A stretch of DNA of 64,000 bases from Kiritimatiellia bacterium (GTDB lineage: Bacteria > Verrucomicrobiota > Kiritimatiellia > JAAZAB01). A program made the translations under genes and the position numbers. The DNA lies in assembly GCA_040767085.1 (NCBI GenBank), contig JAXGPF010000003.1, forward strand, positions 128,001 through 192,000, written 5' to 3'. Positions 60,182 to 64,000 of the stretch are shown here, piece by piece; position 1 is the first letter of the stretch, and each line of letters starts with the position of its first letter. The notes below the pieces were generated by a model. That model had not been told where the DNA came from. It worked only from the letters and a program-made list of their open reading frames with translations, and did no database searches.

Positions 60182-61951
60182 ATGAAAAAATGCTTGAAAC
60201 TGCAATGGGCGCTCGCCGCCGCGCTGGGCGCGGCCGCCTGCTTTGCCACTGCCCAAACACCCGCGGACGAGCAAGCTGCGCAAACTCCGGTTAAAGCCGT
60301 CGTCGACGCCGGCAAGGAAATCGGCGGCGCTGCCGCTGAAACCACCCGGGGTGTGGTGCGCGGTGTAGGAGAAGCCGGCAGCGAGATCGGAGGAGCGCTG
60401 AAAAGCGGCGGCGGCACAGTCGTGGAACAGAGCCAGAGCATCTGGCGGGAAACCGTCATTCCGGCGCTGGAACGCACTTCCAGCGCGCTGCCCGGGGTGA
60501 TCAAGGCCATTATCCTGCTGGTTGCCTTCTGGATTGTCGCCCGGCTCGTCGGCGGCTTGGTGGCCAAGCTGCTGGGGATGACCCGGCTGGACAACCGGGC
60601 CGCCAAGGAACTCGGGTTGGAAAAGATGCTGCAAAAGCCCGACGGCACCCGGCGCTCCCTGGAGGCCATGGCCGGCAGTCTGGTCAAGTGGGTGATCCTG
60701 CTGTTTGGCTTCATTGCATTCTTCAATGCCCTGAACCTGCAGATGGTGGCCGGACCGCTGCAGAACATCGTTGATAAAATCGTGGGAGTCATCCCTAATC
60801 TGCTCAAGGCGGCTGTGATCCTGTTTGTGTACTGGGCCGTAGCCACGCTGGTGAAAATTGGCTTAACCAAGGGGCTGGGCGCGTTGAAATTCGATACCCG
60901 GGCAGCCAAATATTTCCCCGCGCGCGAAATCAAGGGCGAGCAGGTCGGTCCCAGCGCCATGCTCGGGCGGTTGCTGTTTTACGTGATCCTGCTCTTCGGC
61001 ATTCCGCCGTTCCTGGATGCCCTGGGACAACAATCCCTGGTCGCCCCCTTGCAGGAAATGCTGGCCAAGACCCTGGCCTTCCTACCCAACATCATCGCCG
61101 CCGCCATTATCGTGTTTATCGGCAGCATCGTGGCTACAATTGTCCGCGAATTGACAACTAATTTCCTGGCGACGGTCGGCGCCGATGAAGGCGCGCGCAA
61201 GCTGGGCTTTGACAAGATGGCCGGCGGGAAAAAACTTTCCGGTATCATCGGGCTGATCGCCTATTTCTTCATCCTGGTGCCGATCATCATTTCCGCCGTG
61301 GATGCTTTACAGATCAAGGCGATAGCCGATCCCGTCAAGACCACCCTGGAAGCCGTGCTGGCGGCCGTGCCGGCCGTCATCGTGGCTGCGGTGATCGTTA
61401 TTATCGGATACGCCATCGCCAAGGTGGTGCGCGGCCTGGTCGCGTCGCTGTTGAGCGGCATCGGGTTCGACGCGCTGCCGGACAAGGTCGGCCTGGAATT
61501 CCTCAGGCCCAAGGGCCAGGCAACCCTCTCCGCCATTGCCGGGACGGTCGTAATGGCGGTTATTTTGCTGCTGACGGCGCAACAGGCGCTGGACAGCCTC
61601 GGATTCGCGCAATTGGCGGCATTGGCAGACAGCATTGTGCGCTACCTGCCGCATCTCGTGGTCGGCCTGGTAATCCTGTTTGCCGCCTTGAGCCTCGGCA
61701 AATACGTCGGCGGCCTGGTGGCGCAAGCCGCTTCCGGCTCGCCACACGCTAAACTGCTGGCCATCATCGCACGCTACGCGATCATCTTCCTTGGCGCCGG
61801 CATGGCTTTGGATCAGCTCGGGGTGAGCGAACAAATCGTCATCACGGCTGTCAGCGCCGTGCTGGGCGGCGCGGCCCTGGCGCTGGGGCTGGCTTTCGGC
61901 CTGGGCGGCAAGGACAAAGCCCGGGAAATTATCGAAAACTCCAAACAATAA
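60182..61951 (+). CDS. CmpX/MscS-related membrane protein with tandem TM-helix repeats
   Basis: Five P(N/G/A/H)-hydrophobic-A repeats; C-terminal LALGLAFGLGGKDKA; AGGAG RBS. Confidence 0.8.
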   Translation: MKKCLKLQWALAAALGAAACFATAQTPADEQAAQTPVKAVVDAGKEIGGAAAETTRGVVRGVGEAGSEIGGALKSGGGTVVEQSQSIWRETVIPALERTSSALPGVIKAIILLVAFWIVARLVGGLVAKLLGMTRLDNRAAKELGLEKMLQKPDGTRRSLEAMAGSLVKWVILLFGFIAFFNALNLQMVAGPLQNIVDKIVGVIPNLLKAAVILFVYWAVATLVKIGLTKGLGALKFDTRAAKYFPAREIKGEQVGPSAMLGRLLFYVILLFGIPPFLDALGQQSLVAPLQEMLAKTLAFLPNIIAAAIIVFIGSIVATIVRELTTNFLATVGADEGARKLGFDKMAGGKKLSGIIGLIAYFFILVPIIISAVDALQIKAIADPVKTTLEAVLAAVPAVIVAAVIVIIGYAIAKVVRGLVASLLSGIGFDALPDKVGLEFLRPKGQATLSAIAGTVVMAVILLLTAQQALDSLGFAQLAALADSIVRYLPHLVVGLVILFAALSLGKYVGGLVAQAASGSPHAKLLAIIARYAIIFLGAGMALDQLGVSEQIVITAVSAVLGGAALALGLAFGLGGKDKAREIIENSKQ

Positions 61952-62450: not shown

Positions 62451-62522
<72 letters not shown>

Positions 62523-62708
62523 CCCTTAAAACCCTTGTAAAACAAGCCTTTTCTCGTGTTTCCCTGTTTCCCGGCAGCCCTGTAATTGCCATTTAGGGTA
62601 CAATTAGGGGAATTGTTTTCTTGACCGGCGCCCGGCATTGCCTTAGATTGCCCAGTGTAGCCCGGGAATGTTGGTTCCCCTTTTTGTACCCTGATCGGGA
62701 GGCTGGCC

Positions 62709-64000
62709 ATGGCGCTGGAAATGAAACTTACATCCCGCTGGTGGTACGCGCGCTTCCTGGTGAACGGCAAGTTGCGGCGCTTTCCCCTGATGGAACGGCG
62801 CGGCGGGCAAGAACAGCGGGTTGAAATCAAAGGCCGCCGGCCGGCCAGCCTGAAGCATCCCGAGCAAGGCGATGCGGCCTTCCTCGAATCGTATCACCGC
62901 GCGCGCGCCGCGCATGACCGGCTGTCCGAGGAAGAACTGACGCGCCACTCTGTCGAAGACCTGGCGCAACGGATTGTCGAGGCGAAGACCGGCACGCGGC
63001 TTGATTTTGTGAAGGTTGAATCGGTTCCGGATGCCTGGGCATCCCTACCACGTAAACGCCCGCCTTCACCGCAATATCTTGAGACCGGCAAATCCAAATT
63101 GCGGTGCTTTACCACCTTTATGCGGAAAAACTATCCCGCGGTGGAAGACCTGGCCGCTATCCGCACGGAGCATGTCCGCACATTCCTGGACACGGAATCC
63201 GCGCGCGGCGTTGCGCCGCGCACCTGGAACATTACGCTAAAACTGCTCAAAACCGTCTTCGCAAAGTTGGAGCCGAATGCGGACGCATACCGTACTTTCC
63301 TGAAGAATGCGGCCTTCAAGGACGAAGACACCATACACCGGGAGCCGTTCAACGACGAGGAACTGGACGCAATCCTTGTTGCGACGCGTGAGGATGAGAT
63401 TCTGCGCGGACCGCTGGTGACCGCACTCTGCACGGCCATGCGGCGTGGAGATTGCTGTTGCTTGAAATGGGAGAGCGTGGACCTTGGCGCGGGCTTCATC
63501 GAAGTCTGCACCAGCAAGACCGGCGAGACGGCGGAAATCCCCATCCTGCCGTTACTGCGCCAGGAGCTTTTAACTCTGTCGCAGACCGGCGGCGAATATG
63601 TGTTTCCCAAGGCCGCAGCATTGTACCAGACCGATCCGCGTGCCGTTGACCGGCGCCTGCAGGTAATTCTGGCCCGGGCCGGGTTCGTGGATGTCCCGGC
63701 GCCGCCGGCCACCGGAAACGCGGGCGGCAAAAATCCGGAACCAAAACCGCCGATCCCGGAAATCCCACGGGACGAACTTCGCCAACGTGGACTGGACGCG
63801 ATTACCGCCACGGACATGCTTGAGGCAAAACGCCAGCGAATGAAAGTTGTTTTCACGGCCTATTTGGACGGAAAAAGCCTGCCGGCAATTGCCCGTGAAT
63901 TTGGTTTAAGCAAGAGCACCGTATCGCTGCACCTGCATGAGATTGAAGATATGCTCGGCCTGGCCGTCTTCCGCCGTCCAGCGCCGCCGGCGATCCCCGC
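62709..64000 (+). CDS. Tyrosine recombinase/integrase, runs off the window end and is absent from the ORF track
   Basis: Manual translation from GGAGG-ATG 62709 is open to the end: WWYARF.VNGK arm-like start, APRTWN core, HREPF..EEL, TAMRRGD..LKW.SVDL, TSKTG, YVFP. Confidence 0.9.
   Translation, partial: MALEMKLTSRWWYARFLVNGKLRRFPLMERRGGQEQRVEIKGRRPASLKHPEQGDAAFLESYHRARAAHDRLSEEELTRHSVEDLAQRIVEAKTGTRLDFVKVESVPDAWASLPRKRPPSPQYLETGKSKLRCFTTFMRKNYPAVEDLAAIRTEHVRTFLDTESARGVAPRTWNITLKLLKTVFAKLEPNADAYRTFLKNAAFKDEDTIHREPFNDEELDAILVATREDEILRGPLVTALCTAMRRGDCCCLKWESVDLGAGFIEVCTSKTGETAEIPILPLLRQELLTLSQTGGEYVFPKAAALYQTDPRAVDRRLQVILARAGFVDVPAPPATGNAGGKNPEPKPPIPEIPRDELRQRGLDAITATDMLEAKRQRMKVVFTAYLDGKSLPAIAREFGLSKSTVSLHLHEIEDMLGLAVFRRPAPPAIP

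Follow-up and report, generated by a model that had tools for sequence, protein, structure and literature searches.

A tyrosine integrase that carries a helix-turn-helix (HTH) domain nested inside its catalytic domain is encoded at the end of the 64,000-nucleotide stretch of Kiritimatiellia DNA analyzed here (the window; positions 128001 to 192000 of contig C22, in a genome of 4.08 Mb and 28 contigs). The gene is intact; it adjoins a tRNA-Gly gene and bounds a low-GC island of about 43 kb. We hypothesize, with a probability of roughly 0.6, that the protein is an active integrase in which the nested HTH is an accessory DNA-binding module contacting DNA of the attachment (att) region. Tyrosine integrases are thought to gain their specificity through terminal add-on domains and accessory proteins. 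The nested HTH is a variant on the known lambda-type integrases, and both this architecture and the accessory nature of the domain are well supported.

An intact lambda-type integrase with a split catalytic domain

The integrase open reading frame (ORF) starts 184 bp downstream of tRNA-Gly(TCC), and its frame is still open at window position 64000. It ends at C22:192367 (equal to window position 64367) and encodes 552 amino acids (aa) in total. Inside the window it comprises the following parts, where pLDDT is the predicted local distance difference test score:

62709..64000, plus strand, running off the window: integrase ORF
62709..62990, plus strand: N-terminal beta-sheet domain (strands within aa 2-37) and long helix (aa 56-94), assigned with DSSP on the model; putative arm-binding domain
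63015..63296, plus strand: core-binding (SAM-like) helical domain, aa 103-196, from the model helices; PF02899 matches at E 1.1e-3, below its cut-off
63354..63686, plus strand: first part of the catalytic domain, aa 216-326 (PF00589), with R245 at 63441-63443 and K270 at 63516-63518
63687..63767, plus strand: Pro-rich flexible linker, aa 327-353, without secondary structure and with pLDDT <50 at aa 334-339
63768..63956, plus strand: inserted four-helix HTH domain, aa 354-416 (AlphaFold2 model, pLDDT 95-98)
63957..64000, plus strand: start of the return segment, aa 417-454, which contains the return strand and leads back to the HxxR helix (AlphaFold2 model)

An earlier reading of the window, made from sequence alone, had noted the motifs TAMRRGD (aa 242-248), TSKTG (aa 268-272), and YVFP (aa 297-300) in the ORF translation, followed by a Pro-rich linker, the segment VVFTAYLDGKSLPAIAREFGLSKSTVSLHLHEIE (aa 380-413; window 63846-63947), and a second Pro-rich stretch, and we find all of them at the positions it gave. 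It had also remarked that neither an HxLRH box nor a catalytic tyrosine appears in the window. This is true of the part of the integrase inside the window, and both lie just past position 64000: translation beyond the window end, which the same reading had proposed as a check, yields WHSFRVTF (H456 and R459), TGHT (H482), and KHY (Y492). The full catalytic set is thus R245-K270-H456-R459-H482-Y492 (RKHRHY below), and all six residues are invariant in 34 of 34 aligned homologues spread across the family.

The Pfam integrase family PF00589 matches the protein well above its cut-off (42.9 bits versus 27.1; E 5.9e-11) in two stretches that are split by the insert, the first of which (aa 219-327) covers profile positions 8-124 of 172; in the structural model the two pieces of the catalytic domain occupy aa 216-323 and 455-546, and the second lies outside the window. 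This profile result and the structure prediction answer two further checks that had been proposed. The integrase was modelled with AlphaFold2 on a 100-sequence alignment, with a mean pLDDT of 90.1 and a predicted template modelling score (pTM) of 0.74. In a Foldseek search, the best fold match of the model is full-length lambda Int (1z1b_B; E 1.9e-7), in an alignment spanning 510 columns, followed by Tn1549 Int, XerA, IntI4, XerH, and Cre. There are 30 PDB matches at E <= 1e-3, and those listed are tyrosine recombinases. A profile search with the integrase family likewise retrieves Xer, Tn1549 Int, and lambda Int, and sequence identity to solved integrases is 12-20%. The N-terminal part has no Pfam match, and hence none to a Pfam arm-binding family. 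The protein is a lambda-type tyrosine integrase with an arm-binding-like N-terminal domain, a core-binding domain, and a catalytic domain.

The inserted domain

The integrase has about 110 residues between its ARAGF helix and its HxxR helix, a place at which an archaeal Xer structure has none. When a profile built from 100 family members was aligned to the Pyrococcus Xer (4a8e), chain residues 48-217 matched profile positions 142-312, and chain residues 216-276 matched 424-485. By this alignment, about 111 profile positions are extra, and they sit where the chain of an ordinary recombinase runs on without a break, some 10 residues ahead of the HxxR histidine. The split PF00589 match and the 4a8e alignment bear out the suggestion that an extra domain of DNA-binding type is looped into the catalytic core, the DNA binding itself being predicted from the fold.

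In the full model the HTH helices span aa 354-367, 372-386, 391-398, and 402-416. A second model of the insert alone, built from 28 genome-derived segments, has the same four helices (pLDDT ~96-98) and a floppy tail. The return segment (aa 417-454) has a pLDDT of 80-95 in the full model versus 49-64 in the insert-only model, and this drop suggests that it packs on the catalytic domain. The linker into the insert varies in sequence and length among homologues.

The best Foldseek matches of the insert are region 4 of extracytoplasmic function (ECF) sigma factors (3hug, and 2h27 on -35 DNA), KorA, and LuxR/FixJ-type domains, with E of 0.07-0.4 and probability of 0.98-1.0. VIA-align, which is independent of Foldseek, returned SigF region 4, EL222, VpsT, DegU, RhlR, KorA, SigA region 4, BldN, NarL, SigR region 4, and GerE with Z of 6.0-7.2, and sigma region 4 or LuxR-type domains make up most of its top rows; for SigF, SigA, and SigR region 4, NarL, GerE, DegU, and EL222, root mean square deviations are 1.3-2.9 Å over 50-60 residues. 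By the tool's own caution, a Z below 8 can reflect a common helical arrangement. HTH families of Pfam match aa 375-415 at E 8e-5 to 3e-3, and the neighbours of the insert in the Atlas are small Sigma70_r4/GerE proteins (0.91-0.93). Within the insert, Y385 and S406 are invariant in the 34 aligned sequences, and K374, G388, S401, K402, L409, E413, and R422 are kept in at least 90% of them. Since the two aligners, the subthreshold Pfam matches, and the Atlas neighbours agree, a tetrahelical HTH of the sigma region 4/LuxR type is the best description of the insert, in line with the sigma region 4-like HTH of the sequence-only reading. As modelled, the inserted domain is complete and independently folding, is held on flexible Pro-rich tethers, and is predicted from its fold to bind DNA.

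tRNA attachment sites and islands

The linkage to a tRNA, also part of the sequence-only reading, is borne out both by the same-strand tRNA-Gly(TCC) and by repeats that bound an island:

62452..62524, plus strand: tRNA-Gly(TCC), the integration target (ARAGORN)
62482..62524, plus strand: attL, 43 bp covering the tRNA gene from its anticodon loop to its 3' end (genome-wide exact-match search, with extension)
C22:233234-233276, outside the window, 42,752 bp downstream: attR, a perfect 43-bp repeat of attL (exact-match search)
C28:108675-158886: low-GC island of about 50.1 kb next to a paralogue of the integrase, with a 46-bp repeat of the tRNA 3' end (4 mismatches)

The 42,752-bp island has a GC content of 52.9%, compared with 61.0% for the genome. 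The att repeats and the low GC content indicate that the integrase has probably acted, inserting a defence island of ~43 kb into tRNA-Gly. The paralogue on C28, which is 48% identical and also bears the HTH, adjoins tRNA-Pro(CGG). The first gene downstream of it encodes an ankyrin-repeat protein. Partial tRNA repeats of 45-48 bp, beginning at tRNA position 30-33, were also found for four further islands of insert-bearing integrases in other genomes; for two of the four the repeat is on the same contig, which delimits islands of ~68.5 and 13.3 kb. In one genome a shorter second copy of the tRNA-Pro 3' end (G317:C56:46786-46816; tRNA positions 47-77, 97%) was seen 4.4 kb past attR, which may be the remnant of an earlier or tandem integration. 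The family apparently moves islands of 13-68 kb, which in this genome are defence islands, in bacteria of the Planctomycetes-Verrucomicrobia-Chlamydiae (PVC) group that are known almost only from metagenomes.

Distribution of the family

A word-indexed search in which 8,000 candidates were scored returned 918 relatives of the integrase at E <= 1e-3. The 120 relatives listed are mostly 520-580 aa long and cover the whole query, and those of them that are named are tyrosine recombinases of Verrucomicrobia, Kiritimatiellae, or Lentisphaerota; a precomputed match to an HTH family of Pfam is carried by 18 of these 120. An exhaustive search yielded 4,033 representatives at E <= 1e-3, of which 312 reach E <= 1e-30, and all 34 members in an alignment spread across the family have the insert. 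In a sample of the same phylum, 55 of 401 genomes, belonging to 38 of 184 genera, have a match at E <= 1e-40.

With the full-length alignment as the query, 308 loci encoding a relative were found among 185,579 species genomes. The best 80 of these 308 loci belong to Verrucomicrobiota (several orders, including Akkermansia-labelled metagenome-assembled genomes), Kiritimatiellae, and Lentisphaerae/Victivallales, or are labelled "PVC group" or left as unlabelled bacterium, and nearly all are titled metagenome-assembled genomes. A complete ORF is present at 73 of the best 80 loci; all 73 have the insert (101-126 aa), and their catalytic set is RKHRHY in 72 and RKQRHY in 1. A tRNA gene lies directly upstream at 12 of 31 loci in a first set and at 16 of 61 loci with enough upstream DNA in a second set, and 19 of the best 80 loci hold any tRNA. 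The loci that adjoin a tRNA belong to clades nearer the query, and the deeper insert-bearing clades are without a flanking tRNA. Only 3 relatives were found among 2.9 million viral contigs. A search for stand-alone relatives of the insert, of 59-189 aa, returned a single protein, which is on a 1,161-bp contig and is probably a gene fragment. The closest homologue in a genome other than this one (G035:C52:19369-20991) has one in-frame TAG and a longest ORF of 457 aa, and may be a recently inactivated copy or reflect a sequencing error. The family of integrases with a nested HTH is genuine, conserved, and apparently functional, and it is large in the PVC group.

Relatives with and without the insert

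Of 258 fetched and aligned proteins, 214 are full length. Scoring those with at least 90 residues in the segment as insert-bearing and those with at most 55 as insert-less, we found the insert in 173 of the 214 and its absence in 41. This homologue survey had been among the checks proposed, and because the insert is carried both by these 173 relatives and by the 73 complete PVC-genome genes, the nested HTH is not an assembly artefact.

A FastTree tree was computed after the insert columns had been removed, so that only shared columns counted; it is unrooted and has 141 rows, namely, the 41 insert-less proteins and the 100 insert-bearing ones that remain after thinning out 73 near relatives. 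The insert-less proteins are nested among the insert-bearing ones, and the insert state requires 14 changes, at least 9 of these being forced by branches with support of at least 95. The boundaries of the gap differ: one protein (P0056) retains the linker and tail, two (P0116 and P0124) lose more, and a fourth (P0168) may keep a short remnant aligned under the HTH. Being unrooted, the tree does not formally separate gain from loss; nine or more independent gains of a homologous domain in the same loop would be much harder to credit than recurrent loss or exchange.

The insert-less genes taken from genomes retain RKHRHY without exception (20 of 20). Seven of these 20 lie directly downstream of a same-strand tRNA, and 1 more is adjacent to a tRNA but divergent. 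In one complete genome (G203), three insert-less genes bound islands of ~48.5, 33.9, and 55.8 kb with 45-bp att repeats that start at tRNA position 32-33. Given that insert-less relatives fall among insert-bearing ones in the tree, have the catalytic residues intact, and target the same part of the tRNA, we regard the HTH as an accessory module; neither catalysis nor the choice of the anticodon-loop sublocation in tRNA genes requires it. The natural pairs with and without the HTH stand side by side as a ready-made experiment on a nested DNA-binding domain in a recombinase.

Comparison with known recombinases

As modelled, the integrase has the three-domain layout of lambda Int and other arm-binding, tRNA-targeting integrases (its fold matches 1z1b/1z1g and Tn1549 Int); it also shares with them the RKHRHY set, arm-type repeats in tandem on both sides of the island, and a stretch of att identity that starts in the anticodon loop and ends at the 3' end of the tRNA. 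It differs from them in the ~110 extra residues, forming a whole HTH domain, that separate the HxxR helix from the helix preceding it. In its model the insert resembles sigma-70 region 4 and LuxR/GerE domains, appearing as a four-helix HTH of like topology (VIA-align Z 6.0-7.2), but it is nested in an enzyme instead of being C-terminal, and there is no evidence linking it to RNA polymerase. The integron integrase IntI has a short extra helix and acts with an attI/attC array, whereas the insert is a domain of ~110 aa, and the integrase belongs to a tRNA-flanked island, not to a cassette array; the IntI4 structure 2a3v gives a weak profile match to the integrase family (E 3.5e-5).

Engineered Cre-type recombinases offer the closest parallel. 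As described in the accessible parts of the source, pentapeptide scanning of Cre, Brec1, D7L, and D7R found common insertion-tolerant regions, and the site 278/279 was chosen for its insertion tolerance and its proximity to DNA (PMC11631766). Zif268 placed at 278/279 on (GGS)8 linkers abolished activity on a plain lox site, and a zinc-finger site lying 5 bp away from the half-site of lox restored the activity of the fusion (PMC11631766). In the translation of phage P1 cre (...LIYGA(275)-KDD|SGQRYLAWSG-H289-SAR), site 278/279 lies 3 residues past the YGA helix and 10 before the HxxR histidine, and the natural insert starts 1-3 residues past ARAGF(326) and returns ~10 residues before H456. Because these motif positions match, and given the Xer alignment, we place the natural insert and the Cre site in the same loop. 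The equivalence is one of motif position: hhalign of the family against Cre aligned only aa 119-261 with Cre 37-189, at a probability of 12.7. The engineered Brec1-278-Zif268 and D7-ZF proteins, as far as the available text of their report describes them, and the HTH integrase are alike in that the catalytic domain encloses a domain of DNA-binding type tethered by two flexible linkers; the former are engineered and use a zinc finger, and the latter is natural (PMC11631766). Dependence on a flanking site was demonstrated for the engineered fusions, and it is a hypothesis for the HTH integrase (PMC11631766). That the insertion point coincides with an empirically found site for programmable Cre means that this family could inform or supply flank-dependent recombinases.

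Other insertions in the catalytic domain of tyrosine recombinases are covered in the accessible text of Smyshlyaev et al. (2021), namely, those of integron integrases and Arch2/SNJ2, the beta-insertion of IntTn916/IntBPP-1, and two extra strands in lambda (PMC8138268). Like the nested HTH, these are lineage-specific insertions in the catalytic-domain fold that shape or recognize DNA; in contrast to it, those described in that text are short (a helix or a few strands), and none is a separate DNA-binding domain (PMC8138268). In the same text the term "Helix-turn-helix" occurs 0 times, and "HTH" stands in names of excisionase Pfam models. The literature searched, this paper included, contained no natural recombinase in which a DNA-binding domain is nested; the paper's supplementary figures may bear on the point (PMC8138268).

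Arm motifs and promoter-like sites

The arms of the island contain repeated motifs and promoter-like sites that could be read by the HTH or by another domain of the integrase:

62592..62614, plus strand: type A arm site, TTTAGGGTACAATTAGGGGAATT, with two TTAGGG half-sites 11 bp apart; identical copy at C22:233079-233101
62675..62692, minus strand: inverted type A copy, 89% complementary, 17 bp before the int start codon
62647..62661, plus strand: second motif common to both arms, ATTGCCCRGTGTRGC; it recurs at C22:233123-233137, and these are the only 2 genome-wide, one per arm
62621..62649, plus strand: promoter-like TTGACC-17-TAGATT upstream of int (consensus match; 1 found versus 0.1 expected in shuffles)
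C22:233124-233151: outward promoter-like TTGCCC-16-TATAAT near attR (consensus match)

A degenerate 18-mer of the type A site occurs 3 times in the 4.08-Mb genome, each time in an island arm, and the arms of the paralogue's island share a 21-bp motif with two TGTGTTGG half-sites 12 bp apart. Tandem half-site motifs are common to both arms in 7 of 9 islands, including all 3 insert-less ones; in the other two, where the presumed attR is on another contig, type A motifs are not shared. Since the insert-less islands have them too, we infer that the tandem motifs are read by the N-terminal arm-binding domain common to both forms.

The second motif lies 13-33 bp downstream of the tandem motif in both arms of both islands of this genome, as ATTGCCCRGTGTRGC and, in the paralogue's island, as TGTAAAGSCATGTMAT. 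The arm-to-arm alignment of one insert-less island shows a comparably weak second motif. The ATTGCCCRGTGTRGC copies overlap the -10 element of TTGACC-17-TAGATT and the -35 element of TTGCCC-16-TATAAT. After excision, the outward site near attR would read across attP towards int. By eye, the right arms of the three insert-less G203 islands (L062-L064) have outward sites of the TTGACA/TTGACT-N17-TATATT/TATCAT type.

A survey of 108 of the 126 ORFs downstream of int, with 4 ORFs of this island's locus and 14 of 50-65 aa left aside, showed that an HTH_17 ORF follows int within 1.5 kb at 5 of 26 insert-bearing versus 2 of 22 insert-less loci; beyond HTH_17 (7 of 48 loci), these 108 ORFs contain no recurrent family that would be a conserved partner gene next to int. 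Both islands of this genome have HTH_17 candidates of their own, at C22:231673-231825 (25.8 bits, below the cut-off) and C28:147399-147551 (33 bits). The idea of the HTH as a universal reader of the tRNA T-arm was also considered and is weakened by two observations, namely, that insert-less relatives use the same tRNA sublocation and that only 16 of 61 insert-bearing loci flank a tRNA.

Possible role of the nested domain

We propose that the HTH is an accessory DNA-binding module that would contact DNA beside the recombinase's own sites in the att region, where its docking would add affinity or specificity or would make catalysis depend on flanking sequence. By analogy with zinc fingers in the equivalent Cre loop, the tethered HTH should reach DNA just outside the core-type site. 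A stronger form of the proposal, to which the same analogy leads and which we consider rather unlikely, is that the HTH would keep the catalytic domain dormant until docked on a sequence beside the core, so that cleavage would be gated and the integrase "licensed"; if so, the lineages that lost the HTH would have reverted to ungated enzymes.

Several points weigh against an accessory DNA-binding role. The fold scores of the insert are individually weak (Foldseek E >= 0.07; VIA-align Z <= 7.2), and every HTH match in Pfam is below its curated cut-off (Sigma70_r4_2, 22.7 bits versus a cut-off of 25.7; HTH_23, 22.6 versus 24.6; GerE, 17.6 versus 23.5; Sigma70_r4, 13.0 versus 24.1). Folds like that of sigma region 4 can bind proteins too. 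Its repeated loss means that recombination proceeds without need of the module. Tests of arm motifs, promoters, replacement of an excisionase (Xis), and tRNA reading assigned no DNA target to the HTH: the tandem arm motifs are equally present in insert-less islands; the second motif class is not significant alone (E 0.82 and 0.14 in arm-to-arm alignment), and arm-to-arm alignments found no counterpart of it in the four other insert-bearing islands; and the arms of the paralogue's island have 0 promoter-like sites each, so that the overlap of motif and promoter is not replicated.

Alternatively, the HTH might mainly be a transcriptional autoregulator that binds promoter elements in the arms and represses int when integrated or boosts it after excision. 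The second arm motif overlaps both the -10 element upstream of int and the -35 element of the outward promoter-like site in the far arm, and the nearest folds of the HTH are readers of promoter -35 elements and LuxR-type regulators, but neither arm of the paralogue's island has a promoter-like site, outward promoters were also seen by eye in insert-less G203 right arms and so do not depend on the insert, and consensus scans are no evidence of function; we consider autoregulation as the main role unlikely, if only slightly more so than gated cleavage. Less probable again is a module for protein interaction, with another protomer, an excisionase, RNA polymerase, or an anti-sigma-like protein, which would control assembly or directionality without binding DNA. 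Structures of sigma region 4 bound by anti-sigma factors are among the top fold matches (3hug, 8jzt, 6dxo, and 3vep), and SKGTVS, the presumed start of the recognition helix, is conserved despite different tRNA targets and arm motifs; because of this conservation across members with different targets, a common partner fits better than divergent DNA sites. On the other side, many HTH families that bind DNA typically keep this turn and the first residues of the helix, and no candidate partner gene is conserved beside int among the 108 downstream ORFs.

Excisionases are small HTH or winged-helix DNA benders, and a tethered HTH could act in cis, serving as the integrase's own recombination directionality factor in place of a separate excisionase. 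We rejected this very improbable alternative since, among the 108 ORFs surveyed, HTH_17 genes are found alongside the insert (5 of 26 insert-bearing versus 2 of 22 insert-less loci), and both islands of this genome hold their own HTH_17 candidate. The sequence-only reading had also asked whether the integrase has been converted into a regulator, without recombinase activity, or whether the ORF stops soon after the window and a frameshift or an assembly error had joined the HTH to it from an adjacent gene. Recombinase-fold proteins that act as repressors only do exist, for example, MrpR (YopR) of SPbeta, which in the available text of its report shares the tyrosine-recombinase fold and uses it in gene regulation (PMC10516654). 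The HTH integrase differs from that type in keeping every catalytic residue and in bounding a delimited island. The invariant hexad, the perfect att repeats around a compositionally foreign island, the frame that continues across the window end to 552 aa, and the occurrence of the same single ORF in hundreds of independent assemblies speak against both ideas, which we consider barely credible.

Island cargo and neighbouring genes

The island downstream of the integrase, outside the window, carries mainly defence genes together with a possible nested element:

C22:193039-206746: complete Hma system (HmaA, E 2.3e-192; HmaB, 5.9e-122; HmaC, 5e-107)
C22:209419-212557: prokaryotic Argonaute (pAgo)/PIWI-like protein of 534 aa, then an NsnB/AriA/GajA-like ATPase of 502 aa
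C22:218185-219987: DRT class UG39 reverse transcriptase (E 6.8e-114)
C22:226695-230423, near the attR end: rve transposase (574 aa), AAA_22 ATPase (276 aa), and AAA_25 protein

In the Hma system, HmaA is an SNF2 helicase with a NOV_C nuclease-like end, HmaB a DUF1156 methylase, and HmaC a DUF499 ATPase, and a gene for a 772-aa Schlafen/NB-ARC STAND protein sits between HmaA and HmaB. The 534-aa protein matches the pAgo model of PADLOC at E 4.6e-13 and has no Pfam match; together with the ATPase it may form a defence pair of the short-pAgo type. The UG39 gene is flanked by genes matching PDC-M16B upstream and by an HTH_3 gene downstream, and further cargo includes PDC-S11 and AbiEi. The rve, AAA_22, and AAA_25 genes may represent a Tn7- or Mu-like element nested in the island.

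Directly downstream of int, on the minus strand, is an 81-aa remnant (C22:192511-192756) that by eye resembles the C-terminal end of an IS21-type IstB ATPase, which suggests a decayed insertion sequence at the island edge. On the other side, just upstream of the tRNA, a 589-aa ORF (window 60182-61951, plus strand) has a signal-like N terminus and many hydrophobic segments and probably encodes a multipass membrane protein of the host backbone.

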